From: a virus | DNA length: 17,799 nt | Strand: one strand, 5' to 3' | Virus genome (UHGV): UHGV-1847153 | Shown: in pieces, positions 7,874-17,799 of the stretch | Layout: every line of letters begins with the position of its first letter | Numbering within the stretch: the stretch's first letter is position 1 | Position numbers and translations under genes: made by a program | The notes under the pieces: model-generated | Seen by the model: only the letters and a program-made list of their open reading frames with translations | Told to the model about the DNA's origin: nothing | Database searches by the model: none

Positions 7874-8061
7874 CCTTCAACAGCCTGCCGGGCGGTGAAG
7901 ATTTTATTCTTCGCCCGGCGCTTGCCTTCCATATTGACCAGAAAGACCTTAACAGCGGTGCGGTAGACCTTTGCCGCATCGCGCTTCTCAATGACTACCT
8001 CGACATGCGCGAGGATAACGACGCCCGGGTAGATAAATGGAGAGCGGCCAATGAGCGGTAA
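7448..8061 (+). CDS. Tail assembly chaperone -1 frameshift fusion product (lambda G-T analogue); joins zero frame 7448 to about 7822 with the -1 frame to 8061
   Basis: The -1 frame downstream of the slippery run is open for about 80 codons (...KFFARTPYQRDAHPASGITFNSLPGGEDFILRPALAFHIDQKDLNSGAVDLCRIALLNDYLDMREDNDARVDKWRAANER) and ends 10 nt inside the tape measure gene. The chaperone frameshift upstream of the tape measure gene is a conserved feature of long-tailed phages. Confidence 0.5.
7816..7828 (+). other. Candidate -1 programmed ribosomal frameshift site: GGGAAATTTTTTG, overlapping slippery heptamers G_GGA_AAT, A_AAT_TTT, T_TTT_TTG in the chaperone zero frame
   Basis: Zero-frame codons CTG GGA AAT TTT TTG read directly. 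The -1 frame is open from 7759 to the TAA at 8059-8061. Confidence 0.5.
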
Positions 8062-10318
8062 CGCAGATACGATTAAAGATTTCCTTGTTTCGCTGGGATT
8101 CGATATCGATCAGGCTGGCGCTAATAAGTTTGAAGCCGTGCTGAAAGGCGTTACAGCTAACGTTCTGAAGGTCGGCGCGGTGGTGGAAGGCGCAGCGCTG
8201 AGCATTGTCGGATTTACCACTCAGATCGCGAACGGTCTGGATAAAATTTACTGGGCATCCCAGCGGACGGGGGCCAGTGTCCAGGGCATCAAAGCGCTGG
8301 GATACGCCGCATCGCAAACCGGTGCCAGCGCCGAGTCGGCTATGTCCTCCCTCGAAGGGCTGGCCGGTTTCATGCGTAGCAATCCGGGCGCGGAAGGCTT
8401 CCTGAACCGCCTGGGCGTCCAGACTCGCGATGCCAGCGGAAAGATGCGTGATACTGCGGCCATCTTTACTGGCGTTGGGCAAAAGCTCAACAACATGCCG
8501 TATTACCGCGCGAAACAATACGCGCAGATGCTTGGCATCGATGAAAACACGCTGATGGCGATGCGGCGCGGCATGAATGGCTTTACCGCCGATTACCAGT
8601 CGATGCTGCAAAAGACAGGGTTCAACGCTGATAAAGCGGCTGTTCAGTCCAACAAATTCATGACGTCCATGCGCGGGCTTACGTCGCTGTTCGGCATCAT
8701 GCGGGACAAGATCGGCTCAAACCTCGCTGGTGGCCTGGCTGGTTCGCTGGACAGCCTGCGGCGGCGCATCCTCGACAATTTCCCGAAGATTGAAGAGACG
8801 CTGACCAGAGTTATTAAAGGCGTGATCTGGCTTGCGAACGCATTCACGAGAATGGCGTGGCGGCTGATACAGGGCGCTGGCTCTGTCATCGACTGGTGGA
8901 AGCGTCTTGACGATGGCAGTAAAAATCTGCTGAAAATATTCGGTGCTCTACTTGTCGCATGGCGTCTGCTTAATTCTGCGTTCCTGAAATCCCCGATTGG
9001 AATTATCACCACGCTGATTCTGGCGATCGGATTACTCTATGACGATTATCAGACGTGGAAAGAAGGCGGTAAAAGCCTGATTGACTGGTCCAAGTGGGAG
9101 CCTGCAATAGAAAAGGCGAAAAAGGCAATTCTCTGGCTGCGCGATAAGCTTCTGGGGCTGAAAGATTCTGTTGGTGGATGGCAGAACTCGCTGGAAATTT
9201 TGGCTACTTTCATCGCTGGGGTATGGGTAACAAAAGTATTGGGAGCATTCGCAAAAATATCCGGTCTTCCGATACCTCCATGGCTTAAATTATGGGGAGC
9301 GTATGCTGGTTACCTGGTTTCAGATCGTGAAAACATAAAAGCCAGTGCTAAATCATCTTTGGACTATACCAAAAGGAACATTGGTGATGCTCTTGCTACG
9401 GTTGGCATCAAAACCGACCTTGGGCGAAAAGATGTTAGCGAGGTAAGAGAATGGCCCGCATGGATGGATTGGCTGCATGGTGGCCCAGGTAAGATTATTC
9501 GTCAGGCGCAAAGCAATGGCGTCGTTTATGGCGATAATGTTCAGCCTGACATTCCCGGGGCGGAACAGCATGTTCGTAGTAATGAAATTGCCCCGCATGA
9601 AAGAGATGAAATAAAAAACCGTCAGCAGGCTGCTAATGGTTATCTTGAAAAAATCTCAGACGGGATTGCCAAAATCGGTAATTTATTTTTCTCCCCGGCT
9701 GGAGCTGCTGAAATCTCTCCAAATATATCGGGTGACCCCTCCCAGTTTGCGCAATCAGTCAAACGTCCACAGGCCACAGCCCAGGGCAAAGTATTGCTCG
9801 ACTGGATGGGGCCAATGTTCAATAAACTTGAGTCGCTTTATCAACTTCCAGCTGGTCTATTGAAAAGTGTGGCGATAACCGAGTCAGGTGGTAACCAGTT
9901 CGCCATGTCCGGCGCAGGCGCGAAAGGTCTGTTTCAGTTTATGGATGGTACGGCGCGCGACATGGGCCTTCGCGGAAACGATGTATTCGACCCGCAAAAG
10001 TCAGCTCAGGCCGCAGCTAAGTACCTCAGCCAGCTGTTGCGGCAGAACGGCGGAGACCTTAGCAAAGCACTGGCATCATATAACTGGGGGATCGGGAATG
10101 TTAAGCGCTATGGCATGGGGTTAATGCCGCAGGAAACGCGTAACTACATTCCGAAAGTAATGAGCAACATGCCCACCAGCGCCCCGGTGATTCAGCAGGA
10201 AACGAATATTAACATCCACGGCGTTTCCGATCCGCGCGAGGCTGCCCGTTTGACTGTTGATCGTCAAAAGGGCGTGAATTCACAGTTAACCCAGCAACTC
10301 CCCGCAGGACCGAGATAA
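8051..10318 (+). CDS. Tail tape measure protein with C-terminal soluble lytic transglycosylase (SLT) domain
   Basis: RBS GGAGAG 8039-8044 before ATG 8051. 755 aa. Hydrophobic helices in the middle (LLKIFGALLVAWRLL..., IGIITTLILAIGLLY, LEILATFIAGVWVTKVLGAF). SLT-like block around 9840-10130 with catalytic-type ES motif (VAITESGGNQFAMSGAGAKGLFQFMDGTARDMGL...YNWGIGNV). Position after the chaperone frameshift. Confidence 0.8.
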   Translation: MSGNADTIKDFLVSLGFDIDQAGANKFEAVLKGVTANVLKVGAVVEGAALSIVGFTTQIANGLDKIYWASQRTGASVQGIKALGYAASQTGASAESAMSSLEGLAGFMRSNPGAEGFLNRLGVQTRDASGKMRDTAAIFTGVGQKLNNMPYYRAKQYAQMLGIDENTLMAMRRGMNGFTADYQSMLQKTGFNADKAAVQSNKFMTSMRGLTSLFGIMRDKIGSNLAGGLAGSLDSLRRRILDNFPKIEETLTRVIKGVIWLANAFTRMAWRLIQGAGSVIDWWKRLDDGSKNLLKIFGALLVAWRLLNSAFLKSPIGIITTLILAIGLLYDDYQTWKEGGKSLIDWSKWEPAIEKAKKAILWLRDKLLGLKDSVGGWQNSLEILATFIAGVWVTKVLGAFAKISGLPIPPWLKLWGAYAGYLVSDRENIKASAKSSLDYTKRNIGDALATVGIKTDLGRKDVSEVREWPAWMDWLHGGPGKIIRQAQSNGVVYGDNVQPDIPGAEQHVRSNEIAPHERDEIKNRQQAANGYLEKISDGIAKIGNLFFSPAGAAEISPNISGDPSQFAQSVKRPQATAQGKVLLDWMGPMFNKLESLYQLPAGLLKSVAITESGGNQFAMSGAGAKGLFQFMDGTARDMGLRGNDVFDPQKSAQAAAKYLSQLLRQNGGDLSKALASYNWGIGNVKRYGMGLMPQETRNYIPKVMSNMPTSAPVIQQETNINIHGVSDPREAARLTVDRQKGVNSQLTQQLPAGPR

Positions 10319-11250: not shown

Positions 11251-12312
11251 ATGTCTCTTAACTGGATGCGCCATTTTGAGCTGCAACTGTTGGACCAGAA
11301 CGGGCAGGGCGTTTCCCTGTCTGACTTTAAGGTCACGTTCCAGATCGAGTGGGCAGACACACGCTGGCCGCGCGTGGCGAACGTGAAAATTTACAACCTT
11401 TCGACCGATACCACGAACAAGATACTGGGGCAGGAGTTTGCAAAAATTCGCATCATTGCCGGGTATGACGGTATTGCGCCGGATGTTGATGCGAGCCAGG
11501 TTGGTGTCGCCCGGGAGATTTCACCAGACCAGGTAGGGCAGGTGAACGGTCAGAACTACGGCCTGATATTTGACGGTGATATTCGCTTCACCGTCACCGG
11601 GAAGGACAACATTACGGATTCCTGGGTGCTGATTCAGGCCATCAGTAACCACGAAGCGTTCCTCTACGCGACTACCATCACCACGCTTGCCGCTGGCTAT
11701 ACCGTTGCGGATCTGCACCGGGCGACGATGCAGGATTTCAACGCGTTCGGCGTGACGCAGGGCATTACCGGCGACTTTCCTGATACTGTGTTTCCTCGTG
11801 GCCGCGCGATTTACTCATCCACCCGTAACGTGATGGACAATATTGCTGCGCAGTGCAAAGCGACATGGCAGTTAGTGGATGGGCAGGTGCAGATGGTGCC
11901 GGAGGATAAATACATTCACGAAGCCATCGTGCTGAATGCCGATACTGGCCTGATCGGTATGCCGCAACAAACGATGGGCGGCGGAGTAAACGTGCGGTGC
12001 CTGATAAACCCAAACATCCGTATTAATGGTCTTATCCAGCTCGATCAGGCTTCGGTGTACCGCGCCGCGCTCGGCAATAGCGAAATCGCACAGTCGCCCG
12101 GGCGTATCACCGAAACAGAAGAGAACGGCAACCGTGTGCTGACCGGCACGACGTCACAGGCTGCCAGCATTGCGACGGATGGCGTTTATATCGTCAAAGC
12201 TATCGACTATACTGGCGACACCAGAGGTCAGGCGTGGTACATGGATTTGATGTGTTTTGCGCGTGGCAGCCGCGATTTGCAGAGTAACGCATCACTTAAC
12301 CGGACGTTTTAA
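11251..12312 (+). CDS. Putative baseplate hub-like protein (Mu gpP position)
   Basis: RBS AGGAG 11241-11245 before ATG 11251. 353 aa. Position between tape-measure-proximal genes and the spike gene. Identity by synteny only. Confidence 0.45.
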   Translation: MSLNWMRHFELQLLDQNGQGVSLSDFKVTFQIEWADTRWPRVANVKIYNLSTDTTNKILGQEFAKIRIIAGYDGIAPDVDASQVGVAREISPDQVGQVNGQNYGLIFDGDIRFTVTGKDNITDSWVLIQAISNHEAFLYATTITTLAAGYTVADLHRATMQDFNAFGVTQGITGDFPDTVFPRGRAIYSSTRNVMDNIAAQCKATWQLVDGQVQMVPEDKYIHEAIVLNADTGLIGMPQQTMGGGVNVRCLINPNIRINGLIQLDQASVYRAALGNSEIAQSPGRITETEENGNRVLTGTTSQAASIATDGVYIVKAIDYTGDTRGQAWYMDLMCFARGSRDLQSNASLNRTF

Positions 12313-12315
12313 AAA

Positions 12316-12666
12316 ATGAAAAAACTCATCCTGATGATTGCTTGCAGCTCTTTTGTCTTGGCGGGCGTGGCTCATGCTGATTCCCAGTGTGGGCCTTTCC
12401 ACTTGGGCACGAGCCCGACAAATGATGGATGGGCACGCATTAACGGTGCGAAGCCTGAAAGTCAGAAGGTAACGTTCCTTAAGCAAAAAGAAGACTACGA
12501 GAACATTAAGATGGAATGGCGCATGGCTACTGACCAGCCTGGAAGATGGGTTGGTCTTGAGTACATCAAGCGCAACGGCAAAGCCATTCTCAACGCACAG
12601 TGGTTGCAAGCCAGCATGGATGCGCCGCGTCAGTATGCAACATACGACTGCGTGAAGGTGAAATGA
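12316..12666 (+). CDS. Small secreted (periplasmic) protein of unknown function; cargo (moron) gene
   Basis: N-terminal Sec signal peptide MKKLILMIACSSFVLAGVAHA with AxA cleavage motif (AHA/DS). Mature protein about 95 aa with two Cys (QCGPF..., ...YDCVKVK). Lower GC than the flanking structural genes by eye. No recognisable family. Confidence 0.55.
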   Translation: MKKLILMIACSSFVLAGVAHADSQCGPFHLGTSPTNDGWARINGAKPESQKVTFLKQKEDYENIKMEWRMATDQPGRWVGLEYIKRNGKAILNAQWLQASMDAPRQYATYDCVKVK

Positions 12667-12684
12667 TGATCCGCATCCTTAAAC

Positions 12685-12738
12685 ATCAATAATCGTTGAT
12701 CTCGCGTTTTTATTATGCACTAATCTGTACATGTACAG
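12685..12738 (+). promoter_or_regulatory. Candidate promoter/operator of the TA cassette: -10-like TATTAT (12711-12716) and 14-bp perfect palindrome CTGTACATGTACAG (12725-12738) directly upstream of the antitoxin RBS
   Basis: One of only two sizeable intergenic gaps in the window (12667-12748). Palindrome read directly. -35 element is weak or unclear, so promoter placement is tentative. Confidence 0.35.
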
Positions 12739-12748
12739 AGAGGGTGCC

Positions 12749-13162
12749 ATGAAAATCATTACTTACACGCAAATGCGATCGGATTTATCTGCAACGCTGG
12801 ACTGTTTACGCTCTGGTGAAAGCGTCACAGTTACGCAGCGCGGAAAGCCCGACCTTGTCATCAGTGCAAAATCAGTTGATGAAATCGCTTCCGCAGATGA
12901 GGTAAAAACATCTGCGAAAACAATAGACACGCATCTTGCGCAATTAATTGCATCGAATTTGTCACCACAGATAACGGAGGGTGTCATGAAGCTTACTAAG
13001 CAATTGGATGCCCTTCTTCAGTCTGATGAGGCTCGCCAGACTATGATGAAGGCCACTAATGCAGCAGTTGCTTTGCAGGGCGTGTCTGAGTCATTTATCA
13101 AAGCTCTGCAACATACTCAGACCAAGCATGCGGACATCATAAAAAAACTGGAAGATAAGTAA
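12749..13162 (+). CDS. Phd/YefM-like antitoxin with an unusually long C-terminal extension (137 aa)
   Basis: RBS GAGGG 12740-12744 before ATG 12749. N-terminus (MKIITYTQMRSDLSATLDCLRSGESVTVTQRGKPDLVISAKSVDE) resembles the Phd/YefM fold pattern recalled from P1 Phd. Stop TAA overlaps the doc ATG (TAATG) at 13160-13164. Internal in-frame GGAGGG-ATG at 12976-12988. Confidence 0.6.
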   Translation: MKIITYTQMRSDLSATLDCLRSGESVTVTQRGKPDLVISAKSVDEIASADEVKTSAKTIDTHLAQLIASNLSPQITEGVMKLTKQLDALLQSDEARQTMMKATNAAVALQGVSESFIKALQHTQTKHADIIKKLEDK

Positions 13163-13569
13163 TGACTGAGATTACATTCCTTTCGGTAGATGAGGTCATC
13201 GCTATTCAGAAGAGCACATTGCCAAATAGCGGACAACCAGACCGGGGAAAACTCGAAGGTGCCCTCAATCGCGTCGATAACTTACGCATGTATGAAGGAT
13301 GTGAGGATTTATTTAAATTTGCAGCTATGTACATGGTTGCGATAGCGAAGTCTCACGCTTTTAATGACGCCAATAAGCGAACGGCTTTCCAGGCCGCCAG
13401 CGTGTTTTTGCTTTTGAATGGCTATGAACTGAATACCTCAATGGAGTTAGTCAAGCTGACCATCTTTGCTGCTACGGGAGAGGCCGACTGCGATAACACT
13501 GCTTTGGCGCTTAAACTTTTGTCAGATTATAAGAATGAGCTGCTGGCAGATACGATAACTGGCTACTGA
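13162..13569 (+). CDS. doc: Doc (death-on-curing) family toxin, Fic fold
   Basis: Intact Doc signature HxFxDANKR (SHAFNDANKRTAF, codons 13354-13380). Overall pattern closely resembles P1 Doc as recalled (DLF..A.Y.VA.A..H.FNDANKRTA....FL..NG...........L...ATGE). 135 aa. Translationally coupled to the upstream antitoxin. Confidence 0.8.
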   Translation: MTEITFLSVDEVIAIQKSTLPNSGQPDRGKLEGALNRVDNLRMYEGCEDLFKFAAMYMVAIAKSHAFNDANKRTAFQAASVFLLLNGYELNTSMELVKLTIFAATGEADCDNTALALKLLSDYKNELLADTITGY

Positions 13570-13592
13570 TAGCAAAAAGTAAATTGTACACA

Positions 13593-13617
13593 ACCCGCCG
13601 CCGAGCGGGTTTTTTTA
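13593..13617 (+). terminator. Rho-independent terminator after doc: stem ACCCGC / GCGGGT with 6-nt loop, followed by T7
   Basis: Stem 13593-13598 pairs with 13605-13610; T-run 13610-13616. Lies 24 nt after the doc stop and 11 nt before the spike gene ATG. Confidence 0.6.
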
Positions 13618-13627
13618 TGGAGTTTTT

Positions 13628-14368
13628 ATGCCAATTCCAACTCAATCACAGATCGGCGGCGAGCAGCAGACCGCGCAGGCCATAGCCGATTCGGTGTCTA
13701 CCCAGATGCGCGTAGCGATGCCAGGCATCATTCAGTCGTTCGATCCTGACGCTGTAACCTGCACAGTAGAAGTGGCGCTTCGCGGTATTGTTGGCGACGG
13801 CTCCACCGAATTAAAACCGCTGGTGGATGTTCCTGTCATCTTCCCGCGCGGCGGCGGCTGCACGCTGACCTTTCCGGTTAAAGAAGGCGACGAGTGCCTG
13901 CTGCTCTTTGCCGACCGTTGCATCGATTTCTGGTGGCAGAGCGGCGGCGTGCAGGAGACCGTCGACCCGCGCCAGCATGACTTATCTGATGCGTTCGCCA
14001 TCGTTGGCCCACAGTCGCAAGCACGGAAAATCAGCGGTATCAGTACCAGCGCCGCGCAGCTGCGAACCGATGATGGTGCGGCGTTTGTAGAAGTCGCCGC
14101 AGGACATAACATCACCATTAAAACACCGGGCCAGCTTACAGCTACGGCTGAAGGTGGAACGACAATCACATCCCCGACTATCACGCTGAACGGCAACGTA
14201 ACGATTAATGGCAACTTGTCTCAGGGAATGGGCGAAAGCGGCGGTACTGCGACGATGCTTGGGCCGGTGACGGTAACGAATGACGTAACAGCTTCTGGTA
14301 TCAGTGTCGCCACGCATAAACATGGCGGAGTACAGACTGGCGGGGGAACTACCGGAGGGCCGCAATAA
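13628..14368 (+). CDS. Baseplate central spike protein (gpV / Mu gp45-like)
   Basis: RBS GGAG 13619-13622 before ATG 13628. N-terminal OB-fold-like region, Gly/Thr-rich beta-helix-like C-terminus (TITLNGNVTINGNL...) ending in an HxH apex motif (ATHKHGG) as in metal-binding spike tips. Followed by W/J/I-like genes. Confidence 0.65.
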   Translation: MPIPTQSQIGGEQQTAQAIADSVSTQMRVAMPGIIQSFDPDAVTCTVEVALRGIVGDGSTELKPLVDVPVIFPRGGGCTLTFPVKEGDECLLLFADRCIDFWWQSGGVQETVDPRQHDLSDAFAIVGPQSQARKISGISTSAAQLRTDDGAAFVEVAAGHNITIKTPGQLTATAEGGTTITSPTITLNGNVTINGNLSQGMGESGGTATMLGPVTVTNDVTASGISVATHKHGGVQTGGGTTGGPQ

Positions 14369-14721
14369 TGCGATACCGTCGCGAAGATACTGAAGGCGAT
14401 TACACTTTCGGCCAGGGTGACGATACTTTCCTTATCGACAGTCCGGAATGTGTCGCCCAGGCCGTAAAAACCCGTTTCGAGCTGTGGCGCGGTCAGTGGT
14501 TTCTCGATCTGACGGAAGGCACGCCGTATGTTCAGTCAGTGCTTGGGAAGCAGCGATCAGATGTCTACATCCTGGCTATACGCGAACGCATACAGGATAC
14601 ACCGGGCGTTCTGTCGATTCTTTCCTTCGATACCAATTATGACGGCACCAGCCGACGCGTCACTTTCACTTCCTCCATTGACACAATCTACGGCCAGACG
14701 ACTGTAAAAAGCGAGGCATAA
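14368..14721 (+). CDS. Baseplate protein (gpW / gp25-like by position)
   Basis: TAATG overlap with the spike gene. 117 aa. Sits between V-like and J-like genes. Identity by synteny. Confidence 0.5.
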   Translation: MRYRREDTEGDYTFGQGDDTFLIDSPECVAQAVKTRFELWRGQWFLDLTEGTPYVQSVLGKQRSDVYILAIRERIQDTPGVLSILSFDTNYDGTSRRVTFTSSIDTIYGQTTVKSEA

Positions 14722-15921
14722 ATGGCTTTGAACCTCGACACGCTGGGGCTATCGGCAACGGTAACCGCCCAGGGGATTAGTGCGCCTGATTACCAGACAA
14801 TCCTAGATACACTGACCAGCTATTTCAGGCAGATTTACGGTAGTGATGCCTACCTCGAACCAGACAGCAAAGACGGGCAGATGGTCGCGCTGGTGGCTCT
14901 TGCCGTGCATGACGCTAACAACACCGCTATCGGGATCTACAACTCTTTTTCACCGACGACAGCGCAGGCCGCAGCGCTTAGCAGCAATGTGAAAATTAAC
15001 GGGATCACGCGAAAAGTAGCGACAAACTCTACTGCTGACCTTCTGTTAACCGGTACGGCAGGCACGACTATCACGAATGGCTCCGCACGGGATAAAAACG
15101 GCATTATCTGGAATTTTCCCGCAAGTGTAGCGATCGGCGTTGATGGTACTGTGCTGGTGACGGCCACATGTGCGAATAGCGGTTCGGTTGCTGCGATGGC
15201 CGGGACTATCACCACCATTAATACACCGACTCGCGGCTGGGTGTCGGTAACCAACCCGGCTGCGGCTACTGTCGGATCACCAGCTGAAACCGACGCAGAG
15301 CTGCGCATTCGGCAGGGGCAAAGCGTCGCGCTACCATCGATCACACCGTTTGAAGGTGTCGACGGTGCAATAGCTAACGTTGCTGGCGTGACACGTCACA
15401 AGTTGTATGAGAACGACACAGGAACAACAGACAGCAACGGGCTGCCGCCGCACTCAATTTCCGCCATCGTCGATGGTGGGGATGTTACCGAAATAGCCCA
15501 GACCATCAGGGGGAATAAAGGACAGGGAACGGCAACCTACGGGACAACTTCTGTCACGGTGCCGGATACTTATGGTAATCCTCACGTCATCAGTTTTTCG
15601 CGCTCTACCGACGTACCGATTTTCGTAGCCATTACCCTGAAAGTTTTTACCGGGTATACCTCTCAAATCGGCGAGCAGATCAAACAGGCTGTTGCCGACT
15701 ATATTAATGGCCTGACAATTGGCGACGACGTTCTGCTGAGCCGTATTTATTCCCCGGCAAACCTCGGCGTTGTGAGCGGCGGGAATGCCCGCTATTACGA
15801 TATTACCGACCTGCTGATCGGTAAGTCGTCTGGCAGCGTATCGGCATCAAACATTGATATTGCCTATGATGCTTCAGCGTCCTGTAGCACCGCGAATATC
15901 AGTATCACGGTGACCTCATGA
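14722..15921 (+). CDS. Baseplate J-like protein (gpJ / gp47 family)
   Basis: ATG immediately after the upstream TAA. 399 aa. Canonical position between W-like and I-like genes. Confidence 0.6.
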   Translation: MALNLDTLGLSATVTAQGISAPDYQTILDTLTSYFRQIYGSDAYLEPDSKDGQMVALVALAVHDANNTAIGIYNSFSPTTAQAAALSSNVKINGITRKVATNSTADLLLTGTAGTTITNGSARDKNGIIWNFPASVAIGVDGTVLVTATCANSGSVAAMAGTITTINTPTRGWVSVTNPAAATVGSPAETDAELRIRQGQSVALPSITPFEGVDGAIANVAGVTRHKLYENDTGTTDSNGLPPHSISAIVDGGDVTEIAQTIRGNKGQGTATYGTTSVTVPDTYGNPHVISFSRSTDVPIFVAITLKVFTGYTSQIGEQIKQAVADYINGLTIGDDVLLSRIYSPANLGVVSGGNARYYDITDLLIGKSSGSVSASNIDIAYDASASCSTANISITVTS

Positions 15922-16598
15922 GCAAATACACCGAACTGATCACTAACTACCACGCTACCAAGCCACTCTTTTTTGACCATATAGATCTGAGCACCCGCCC
16001 GCTGATTGATGTGTCCAGCACTATGTCAGGGCTTATAACAGCCTTCGATATCGATACTGCTGTCGGTGTACAGCTCGACATCCTCGGTCTGTGGATCGGA
16101 CGCAGTCGCATAGTCAGCCAGCCAATTAGCGGAGTTTATTTCAGCTGGGACACTGACGGGCTTGGGTATGACCAGGGCATCTGGCAAGGGCCATATGATC
16201 CTGATTCTGGCTATACGACGCTAAGCGATGAGACGTACCGCATCATTCTGAAAGCGAAAATCGCTATCAACAACTGGGACGGTCGGAACGACTCTCTGCC
16301 TCCCATCCTTGACGCTGCTACCGCAGGCTCAGGCCTGAGGATGCAGATCGTCGACAACCAGGACATGACGATTTCGGTCTGGGTTTTCCCTGAAACTGAT
16401 ATTTCTGATGTGTCTCTCGAACTGATCGCCGCTATCAAACATGGCTATCTCACCGTTAAATCAGCTGGCGTATGGGCCGGTGATGTTGAAACGCCTTCGG
16501 TAGAAACACCGTCAGAAGGCTCTAAATTCTTTGGGTTTGATATGGATAACGAATACATCGGCGGGTTCGATGTTGGAGCATGGGGGACAATACTCTAA
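15918..16598 (+). CDS. Tail protein I-like (gpI / Mu gp48-like) baseplate protein
   Basis: ATGA overlap with the J-like gene. 226 aa. Position between J-like and tail fiber genes. Confidence 0.55.
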
Positions 16599-17362
16599 TG
16601 GCAATAAACAACTTTAAACCTTTCGCGCTTGATCCGAACGCTAACGTCACCTCACAAGCTGACTGGGAAGCACTTCCGGCTCTGCTTTCAGGGTTTACGG
16701 CAGGTAAAGCATCCAGCGCACAGGTCAACAAAGCTATTCGGCAAGCCAGCTTTATCGCGGCAGCGTTGGCGCAGTACACCGCCAACAAAAGCAGGCTGGA
16801 TGTGCTTGATGATGGAGACCTGAACGGGTTTATATCCAAAATGGGGACCGCTTTCGGGAAAGATTTCCAGGCGCTTGACGCCACGCTGACGGCATTGGCT
16901 GGTCTAGCAACTGGTGCAAATAAACTCCCGTATTTCACTGGAACTGATAAAGCAGCTCAGACTGATTTAACTTCTGTTGGCCGTGACATTATTGGGAAAA
17001 ATACTATTGCTGACATTCTCACATACCTTGGTTTGGGAGAAGCGGCGAAAAGGAATGTGGGGACTGGGGCGAATCAGATACCTGATATGTCATCATATGC
17101 ATCAGGTTCAGGCTGGCGAAAAATGCCAGATGGTTCAATTGAACAGTGGGGACGAATTAGTTTTCCTGGTGAACACGGGCCTGTATCCGCCAATGTTTCA
17201 TTCCCGATTCCATTTACACAGACACCGGGCATTGTAATTGTGTGCGATGGTGGTTTCGGGGGCGGGAATATGTGGGGGGCGACCAACTGGAGCACTACCG
17301 GCTTCATAGCTCACTGCAATTATGGTCTTGAAGGTGGTGCGTTTTTCGCTAAGGGCTGGTAA
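16598..17362 (+). CDS. Tail fiber protein (short; conserved N-terminal anchor plus divergent lower-GC C-terminal receptor-binding part)
   Basis: RBS GGGGGA 16583-16588 before ATG 16598 (TAATG overlap with upstream stop; ORF-track Met 16580 rejected). N-terminus [18 protein letters not shown]... resembles tail-fiber N-termini. Followed by an assembly chaperone gene. Confidence 0.65.
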
Positions 17363-17799
17363 TGATGAAATATCTGTACGTAAACAACCTGGCATATCCT
17401 TACGAACTTCAGTCTCTTTATGTTGAAAAAGGTGAATGGCCTGAAGAAAAAGGTGTTGATATAGACGAAGTAATTTTCAGGGAATATTTCTATGATACAC
17501 CACCAGAAGGAAAATACAGATGTGTCGGAGAGGATGGACTGCCTGCATGGGCAGATATTCCTCCACCAACACGTGAAGAACAAATTGCATCAGCCGAAAC
17601 TAAAAAGCAGCAATTGATTAACCAGGCCAACGAATACATAAACAGTAAACAATGGCCAGGTAAAGCATCAATTGGTCGTCTGAAAGGTGAGGAACTGGTG
17701 CAATATAATTTGTGGCTGGATTATCTGGACGCACTGGAGCTGGTCGATACTTCCAGTGCACCAGATATTGAATGGCCGGAAGAACCAGACACAATGTAA
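17362..17799 (+). CDS. Tail fiber assembly protein (Tfa chaperone)
   Basis: Overlaps the fiber gene stop (TAATGATG). 145 aa. Typical Tfa-like sequence ([39 protein letters not shown]...) and position. Stop TAA is the last three bases of the window. Confidence 0.7.
   Translation: MMKYLYVNNLAYPYELQSLYVEKGEWPEEKGVDIDEVIFREYFYDTPPEGKYRCVGEDGLPAWADIPPPTREEQIASAETKKQQLINQANEYINSKQWPGKASIGRLKGEELVQYNLWLDYLDALELVDTSSAPDIEWPEEPDTM

Follow-up and report, generated by a model that had tools for sequence, protein, structure and literature searches.

The G segment of phage Mu, with its invertase Gin and gix sites, and the C segment of phage P1, with Cin and cix, are invertible host-range segments. The P segment of the cryptic prophage e14 is a further case, with PinE as its invertase and pixL and pixR as its sites. 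The H-G genes of phage P2 are reportedly a fixed fibre/assembly pair related to the variable parts of Mu and P1. Inversion of the e14 P segment with PinE has been described (Plasterk and van de Putte 1985, cited in PMC4272514), and published Din-family sites include pixL, TTCTCCCAAACC AA GGTTTTCGAGAG, and pixR, TTCTCCCAAACC AA CGTTTATGAAAA (PMC3241671, Table 3). Tail fibre assembly chaperones (Tfa) are modular: the N-domain binds the fibre and is variable, and the C-domain trimerises and is conserved (PMC9608196).

Here we analysed a window (the whole stretch of DNA, 17,799 nt) that ends in a fibre gene and its Tfa gene. We put the probability at roughly 80% that a host-range cassette occupies 17016-17799 and the 110 nt that follow the window, that it is fixed and does not invert, and that its crossover site is an orphan. 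Loci used for comparison are designated by L numbers.

Tail module and base composition

All long open reading frames of the window lie on the plus strand and together make up a contractile-tail late module (Table 1). The fibre gene most likely starts at 16598; a longer reading frame of 260 residues from 16580 is less likely. The start at 16598 overlaps the DUF2612 stop as TAATG, which fits the 254-residue fibre assumed in an earlier, sequence-only reading of this DNA, and the gene calls of relatives agree (fibre 254 aa, Tfa 145 aa). An exact look-up of the 260-residue product gave no match, the called form being the 254-residue one. The tfa start overlaps the fibre stop, again as TAATG, and tfa is translationally coupled to the fibre gene.

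Table 1. Features of the tail module and base composition towards the window end
Feature	Position	Strand	GC (%)	GC3 (%)	Basis or remark
gpV-like spike with Apex motif	13628-14368	+
117-aa gene	14368-14721	+
Baseplate_J	14722-15921	+
DUF2612 / wedge-1	15918-16598	+	50.5
Tail fibre gene, 254 aa, Gp53-like C-terminal domain	16598-17362	+			ORF list, translation
Constant (backbone) part of fibre, residues 1 to ~140	16598-17015	+	49.5	46.8	Identity to same-backbone prophages
AT-rich patch in fibre, 106 nt	16910-17015		39.6
Predicted orphan Din-family (Pin/Gin/Cin/Hin-type) invertase crossover site	17016-17041	.			Core 17028-17029
Variable part of fibre	17042-17362		50.8	44.3
Conserved linker opening the variable part	17042-17116	+			blast segments
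Putative receptor-binding tip, Gp53-like C-terminal domain	17117-17359	+			Pfam, PDB alignment
Tail fibre assembly chaperone gene (tfa), 145 aa	17362-17799	+	41.8	33	Caudo_TAP match
Tfa N-terminal fibre-specific domain region	17362-17498	+	34.3		Most AT-rich stretch; role from PMC9608196
Tfa conserved C-terminal (trimerisation) domain region	17499-17777	+	45.5		Phage matches
End of tfa, 22 nt (..EEPDTM*), typically seen in fixed cassettes	17778-17799	+			Comparison with relatives
Segment	16580-16974		50.4
Segment	16598-16909		52.9
Segment	16975-17362		49.0

The C-terminal part of the fibre matched Gp53-like_C (PF21882) with a marginal score of 29.5 bits against a cut-off of 24.9 (residues 181-248 of the 260-residue frame), and the closest solved structures, both weak PDB matches, were the tips of the short tail fibre gp92 (E 7e-6) and of the R2 pyocin fibre (E 5e-4). 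Tfa matched Caudo_TAP (PF02413) with 115.9 bits against a cut-off of 22.1 (E 1.8e-33). An NCBIfam profile search gave no model for either protein, and a phmmer search of the PDB with Tfa gave no hit with an E value of 0.01 or lower. In P2-like and Mu-like phages the N-domain region of Tfa is not conserved, and their matches begin at about 17499. From there on, DNA identity to P2-like, Mu-like, HK97-type and Klebsiella phages is 84-91%, and 36 of the 39 phage records listed match solely inside 17499-17778, mostly at 17501-17777.

The fibre gene is chimeric. Up to residue ~144 the protein is part of a backbone, that of a DUF2612-type myovirus-like tail module, and this constant part presumably attaches it to the DUF2612/Baseplate_J wedge. 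Residues ~145-254 would form the receptor-binding tip, which Tfa is expected to fold and trimerise. By analogy with related fibres, the tip may bind a surface receptor, probably LPS.

The low GC content at the end of the window, noted in the sequence-only reading, is real: 16975-17799 has 45.2% GC against 53.2% for the whole window, which places it within the lowest 1.6% of all 825-nt windows. It stems from two sources, the backbone patch at 16910-17015 and the assembly gene. The proposal that the fibre C-terminus and the assembly gene are both AT-richer holds for the latter (41.8%) and not for the former (50.8%). A composition step within the fibre gene near 16975-16990 is absent, since the constant part is at 49.5% and the binomial change-point likelihood is flat from ~16400 to ~17350. 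As the DUF2612 gene 5' of the fibre is already at 50.5%, the fibre N-terminus is not GC-rich like the remaining tail module, contrary to the sequence-only reading. The patch, which is 93-100% identical in same-backbone prophages with a different cassette, is probably what drew attention to this region. Relatives whose baseplates are Mu-like (55-58% GC) do show a GC step at the junction, and the present backbone does not; composition alone misplaces such junctions where the GC content of the backbone is already similar. Other low-GC islands of the window lie at 12316-13569 (46%) and 8751-9750 (48%).

These figures bear on an explanation in which a junction at 16975-16990 is marked by a GC drop and all downstream sequence was imported as one block from an AT-richer donor. 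The exceptional GC content of the last 825 nt speaks for it, and the cassette is indeed foreign to the backbone. It is contradicted by the missing step inside the fibre gene, by the assignment of the patch to the backbone, and by the restriction of low GC beyond that patch to tfa, chiefly its N-domain. The breakpoints of relatives described below add to this, as they lie at 17005-17043, with none at 16975-16990. We therefore regard import of such a block as very improbable.

The crossover site and the junction in the fibre gene

A 26-bp imperfect palindrome, TTCTCACATACCTTGGTTTGGGAGAA, was found at 17016-17041. It consists of two 12-bp half-sites, TTCTCACATACC and GGTTTGGGAGAA, around the 2-bp core TT, and reads TTCTCCCAAACC AA GGTATGTGAGAA on the minus strand. 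The half-sites are palindromic at 10 of 12 positions, and the consensus score is 19 out of 20. Scoring against a 20-position consensus had replaced a strict IUPAC site pattern, which gave no match in the first loci scanned. The 26-mer is unique in the window (0 expected by chance) and encodes I-L-T-Y-L-G-L-G-E, residues 140-148, at the boundary between the constant and the variable part of the fibre. Selection at the protein level may act on the LGLGE peptide itself.

The site is identical to e14 pixL and to pixR at 22 of 26 positions each, including all 14 of the inner half-site and core, and to cixR, hixL and gixL at 21, 20 and 17 positions, respectively. Its AA/TT core is that of pix, cix and hix. 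Identity is complete (26/26) to the left site of two E. coli prophages, L012 (strain WEM25, NZ_CP061530) and L013, where it lies in the same fibre gene. This match, together with its context, indicates that the 26-mer of the window is homologous to a functional crossover site of an invertase. It qualifies as a Din-type site by sequence and position, and is a putative substrate of a Hin/Gin/Cin/Pin recombinase.

In L012 and L013, an inverted right site lies ~1.85 kb from the left one, and both loci also contain tfa, tfa', Sv' and a recombinase gene. The recombinase gene is intact in L012, whereas in L013 it is a truncated pseudogene without the C-terminus. The L012 protein has Resolvase and HTH_7 domains and matches Gin (PDB 3UJ3) over its full length (E 1e-56). 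The same invertible architecture was found in Citrobacter phage Omnitron (L001, CP115737) and in phage SKA5, and small serine invertase genes are present in L001, L003, L006 and L012. In-silico inversion at the cores yielded in-frame alternative fibres of 303 aa in L012, 310 aa in L013 and 244 aa in Omnitron. L006 has sites identical to pixL and pixR beside an annotated pinE, and there the cassette of the window is the promoterless alternative, with a tip 99-100% identical to ours.

To locate homology breakpoints, phages, E. coli genomes and the retrieved loci were searched with megablast and blastn. In more than 10 relatives, all breakpoints fell within 17005-17043, on the 26-mer. The constant part of the fibre is 95-100% identical in L012 and L013, 93-100% in the IMG/VR contig L008 and ~77% in Yersinia phage YP3, and it is unrelated to the corresponding part of the cassette donors L005, L006, L039 and L043. 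YP3 is collinear until 17042. L008 is 96.4% identical until 17034 and then continues with another cassette. L012 and L013 match through 17041 at 95-100%, with the site at 100%, and drop to ~40% from 17042. Conversely, the e14-like E. coli loci L005 and L006 are at ~40% before the site and at 92-100% from 17042 to 17775/17777, while in SKA5, L039, L042 and L043 matching starts at 17016-17025. The discordance at 17016-17042 thus runs both ways.

In the base-by-base alignment, relatives of the backbone share the left 12 nt (TTCTCACATACC), and relatives of the cassette share everything rightwards from ACC-TT-GG. These two limits bracket the joint to ~17025-17043 (~19 nt). Since the right half-site and the next ~75 nt are conserved in most cassettes, resolution is ~19 nt at best. 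A recombination junction inside the fibre gene had been postulated in the sequence-only reading, and there is one. It lies at the site, 30-60 nt downstream of the position given then (16975-16990), where no relative breaks. That composition-based placement had missed the crossover site at the boundary.

Relatives collinear over the entire region exist (L038 and L041, 98%; L010, 97%; L004, 95%). A homologue of this kind, together with an absent composition shift, had been named beforehand as evidence against a cassette. Half of this came true, as collinear homologues were found; they belong to the same prophage lineage, so that the mosaic pattern against all other relatives stands.

Conservation continues beyond the site. 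The linker at 17042-17116 is common to otherwise different cassettes at 77-83% identity (17017-17116 in SKA5, 81%; 17020-17100 in Omnitron, 82.7%; 17018-17091 in L007 and L009, 77%), and the alignments mark it as a second recombination-prone stretch. This is relevant for an explanation by purely homologous recombination, which would use the LGLGE-AAKR linker as left-hand and the Tfa C-domain as right-hand homology and would make the likeness to pix, gix and cix inherited baggage. About 100 nt at 77-83% identity follow the site even in unrelated cassettes, L010 has a second joint at the end of the linker, and the domain in which the invertible-type relatives reach their right limit (17777) is 84-91% conserved among many phages. 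Because the junction is not resolved below ~19 nt, ordinary exchange fits it equally well. Against this, the breakpoints of independent relatives cluster on the 26-mer and are not spread across the linker. The codons of L-G-L-G-E are synonymously invariant in most invertase loci, and substitutions in them were seen in L002, L014, L017 and the fixed cassette L009.

The contig L008 is informative here. Its backbone reaches only 2 nt beyond the core, and in place of the right half-site it has the unrelated GGATTAACAGGC, as would fit exchange at the core with a quasi-site. Site-specific and short-homology exchange look alike in sequence, and L008 mildly favours involvement of the core, given where its backbone stops and that its right half-site is non-cognate. 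Even with this reservation, purely homologous exchange is a possibility to be taken seriously, to which we would give somewhat less than even odds.

Downstream context and distribution of the cassette

An exact look-up of the Tfa protein led to the 18,678-nt contig NODE_66 of ENA ERZ652521, which is 100% identical to the window over positions 11362-17799, at the same coordinates. The window therefore corresponds to the first 17,799 nt of NODE_66, and the true downstream sequence is known for a further 879 nt. The tfa stop is followed by 110 nt common to fixed cassettes, a lambda-type attR and E. coli ybhB. The stretch after the 110 nt is 87-88% identical to the P arm of lambda attP and ends in the core GCTTTTTTATACTAA; E. 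coli sequence (CTTGAGCGAAACGGGAAGG...) follows, with ybhB 99% identical. In L038, which is 98% identical, ybhB, bioA and bioBFCD lie downstream. The attR and ybhB 3' of the cassette indicate a prophage at the lambda attachment site of E. coli, with tfa as its last gene. A hairpin after tfa was considered as an intrinsic terminator and rejected, as it has a 7-bp stem, a loop of ~23 nt and no T-run.

Neither an invertase nor tfa', Sv' or a second cassette was found in the window or in the 879 nt of downstream contig. A partner site was absent from the 17.8-kb window, the 879 nt downstream and the 6 kb downstream in L038, where the best scores were at chance level (13/20). Two defining features of an invertible segment, the partner site and the invertase, are thus lacking in the sequence examined. 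The early region of the prophage would lie upstream of the contig, and an invertase gene might still be encoded there. The sequence-only reading had pointed beyond the end of the window for an invertase or an alternative fibre segment; attR and host ybhB occupy that place. Since partner site, second cassette and invertase are missing, the site at 17016-17041 is best described as an orphan relic and the phage as expressing one fibre specificity. The site is likely to be inactive now.

These observations leave very little room for a still active invertible segment, of which the cassette would be one half and whose invertase and second cassette would lie beyond the window. Such an arrangement is present in the same-backbone L012, L013 and Omnitron, and draft Citrobacter assemblies break at the site, suggesting live inversion there. 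In the present prophage, however, the module ends 110 nt after the tfa stop and gives way to attR and ybhB, and its tfa has the 22-nt ending of fixed cassettes. We consider an active segment extremely unlikely.

The right end of the cassette also distinguishes fixed from invertible relatives. Matches to L005, L006, L012 and L004 end at 17775-17777, and the invertible relatives diverge at 17777/17778, where the convergent tfa' starts to overlap. The ending ..EEPDTM* is also found in the non-invertible L007, L009, L037 and L039, with dinI and an integrase gene downstream. An exact 36-mer of the tfa end recurs in L007-L011 and had no match in the searched set of genome contigs. L039 and L043, which have Mu-like baseplates, stay collinear past the tfa end, and their 98%-identical block runs from 17017 to contig position 17909, so that the module ends 110 nt beyond the tfa stop.

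Backbone and cassette are largely distributed independently. In a set of 5426 complete E. coli genomes, 74 had the backbone segment (16400-17015), 83 had the cassette-specific one (17042-17498), and a single genome joined the two (at least 80% of the 16400-17799 query, 91.9% identity). A gapped backbone-plus-cassette pattern was not found in viral or metagenome contigs. Counterparts ~98% identical to the cassette itself occur as one half of invertible segments linked to pinE and, in fixed form, with Mu-like baseplates. With the two-way discordance and the occurrence of backbone and cassette in different E. coli genomes, the view of the fibre C-terminus and the assembly gene as an exchangeable host-range unit was borne out. 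The unit is not indivisible. L010 is 100% identical up to ~17120 and 73-86% thereafter; in L004 the tip is at 74% in 17120-17240, and tfa is at 100% over 17362-17640 and 96% over 17640-17777. To judge from these finer joints, tip and chaperone are not always inherited together. Along with the phage matches confined to the Tfa C-domain region, the joints agree with the published modular structure of Tfa (PMC9608196).

Origin of the cassette and comparison with known systems

Taken together, the data are most consistent with a fixed cassette behind an orphan site. Tip and chaperone would come from a pool of cassettes that circulates among enterobacterial prophages, usually as halves of Pin/Gin-type segments. 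In sister prophages, the identical site, an inverted partner and a Gin-like invertase would allow in-frame switching of the fibre from one tip to the other. In the present lineage, the cassette may have arrived, or the partner half may have been lost, by recombination at or near the crossover site on the left. The left exchange could have been site-specific or based on short homology, and the right one presumably occurred by homologous recombination, for which the conserved Tfa C-domain region is the likely right-hand homology. E14 of K-12 was considered as a donor and rejected, as its own cassettes differ and only the Tfa C-domain matches (80%); donor-like copies were found in other e14-like prophages (L005, L006).

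The orphan site might also serve as a docking point, at which co-resident Pin-type invertases (pinE, pinQ, pinR) would recombine it in trans with the sites of other prophages, and homologous exchange in the conserved Tfa C-domain would complete the swap. The 26/26 identity to functional sites and the joint of L008 2 nt from the core are compatible with this idea, which we nevertheless consider unlikely. If true, an invertase-less phage could capture new receptor-binding cassettes from the prophage pool of its host.

For this prophage family, the analysis provides a sequence-defined boundary of the host-range module, from the core at 17028-17029 to the right end 110 nt past tfa, which is useful for annotation and for fibre-swap engineering.

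Among described systems, the e14 P segment is closest. The sites are alike in sequence, as detailed above, and occupy the same position in the fibre gene (..NLGLGE..), and in e14-like pinE-linked segments of many E. coli (L005, L006) one half is ~98% identical to the tip and tfa of the window. In contrast to e14, the present prophage has no pin gene, partner site or second cassette in the sequence examined, and its backbone has a DUF2612-type baseplate, whereas that of e14 is of the YmfQ/Mu-Gp48 type.

With the Mu G and P1 C segments, the locus shares a constant fibre part joined at a 26-bp site to variable parts, each with its own Tfa, and the invertases of the sister prophages are close homologues of Mu Gin. 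Unlike in Mu and P1, the arrangement is frozen in one orientation, and the gix core is GA rather than AA/TT. The P2 H-G genes are likewise a fibre/Tfa pair that does not invert, and their distal part forms mosaics with invertible cassettes from other phages; the Tfa C-domain of P2-like phages is 86-89% identical to the window at the DNA level. The locus differs from the P2 pair in backbone, in tip domain and in the length of the fibre, here 254 aa.

Two relatives of the backbone, L012 and Omnitron, share the baseplate-J/DUF2612/fibre genes at 93-100% DNA identity up to the site, and the left site of L012 is the same as that of the window. They differ in having kept a full invertible segment with its invertase, in their tips and in their chromosomal positions; L012 adjoins yciI-tonB, unlike the prophage of the window at the lambda attachment site. 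The locus is a classical mosaic tail fibre with an invertase site at the module boundary, a kind already known and not new in mechanism. It adds one more example of an invertible-segment cassette fixed in a phage that lacks the invertase, and opens no new biological question.

State of the crossover site in relatives

The Din-family crossover site inside the fibre gene was compared with its counterparts in related loci. In L008, a locus with the same backbone, the left half-site and core are retained, and the right half reads GGATTAACAGGC, not GGTTTGGGAGAA. Such a joint, 2 nt away from the core, is what recombination with a quasi-site would be expected to produce.

Two draft Citrobacter assemblies, those of C. 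braakii ATCC 51113 and Citrobacter sp. wls619, are broken at the crossover site or directly past it. In C. braakii, the stretch bounded by the two half-sites forms a 1610-nt contig of its own, with coverage about twice as high. These assemblies suggest that both orientations, or two copies, were present in the Citrobacter cultures.

Backbone and cassette are collinear in just one complete E. coli genome, that of E. coli 2021CK-01361 (L004). Its alternative fibre end is truncated by an IS26 insertion, and the flanking 4 kb that were examined contain no annotated invertase gene. Truncation by IS26 may be another route to the fixation of an invertible segment.

Coordinates of features in the window, its source contig and related loci
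Feature	Location	Remarks
Phd-like antitoxin and Doc/Fic toxin genes	window 12731-13569	low-GC island (45-46%), baseplate genes on both sides
Second low-GC stretch	window 8751-9750	46-50% GC, within gene 8051-10318
Crossover site in L008	L008 13413-13438	
Truncated alternative fibre end	L004 5971-6880	
Citrobacter assembly breaks	L014 5437-5575, L015 end, L025 (1610 nt), L034	
Sequence downstream of the window	source contig 17800-18678 (L040 6439-7317)	
100 nt after tfa	source contig 17810-17909	
Copy of these 100 nt	L006 2281-2380	88% identity, inverted

Low-GC stretches among the tail genes

The toxin-antitoxin pair consists of a Phd-like antitoxin of 143 aa, which scores under the cut-offs of both Pfam and NCBIfam, and a 135-aa Doc/Fic toxin that matches TIGR01550 at E 6e-23. 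The small genes at this spot differ between the window and its relatives: a DUF4236 gene on the opposite strand takes the place of the pair in L012 and L013 (same backbone), and unannotated ORFs are found in L041 and L004. The spot looks like a hot spot for moron insertion between baseplate genes. Separately, a second low-GC stretch falls within a 755-aa gene, presumably the tape measure.

Right end of the prophage

The window is a truncated form of ENA contig ERZ652521 NODE_66, whose end consists of Nextera adapter sequence (CTGTCTCTTATACACATCTCCGAGCCCACGAGAC), an assembly artefact. The 100 nt after tfa recur in the e14-like prophage of L006, beyond pinE, on its far side. The contig part downstream of the window contains a lambda-type attR (core GCTTTTTTATACTAA), with a P arm 87-88% identical to that of lambda, and E. 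coli ybhB, indicating that this contractile-tail prophage uses the lambda attachment site.
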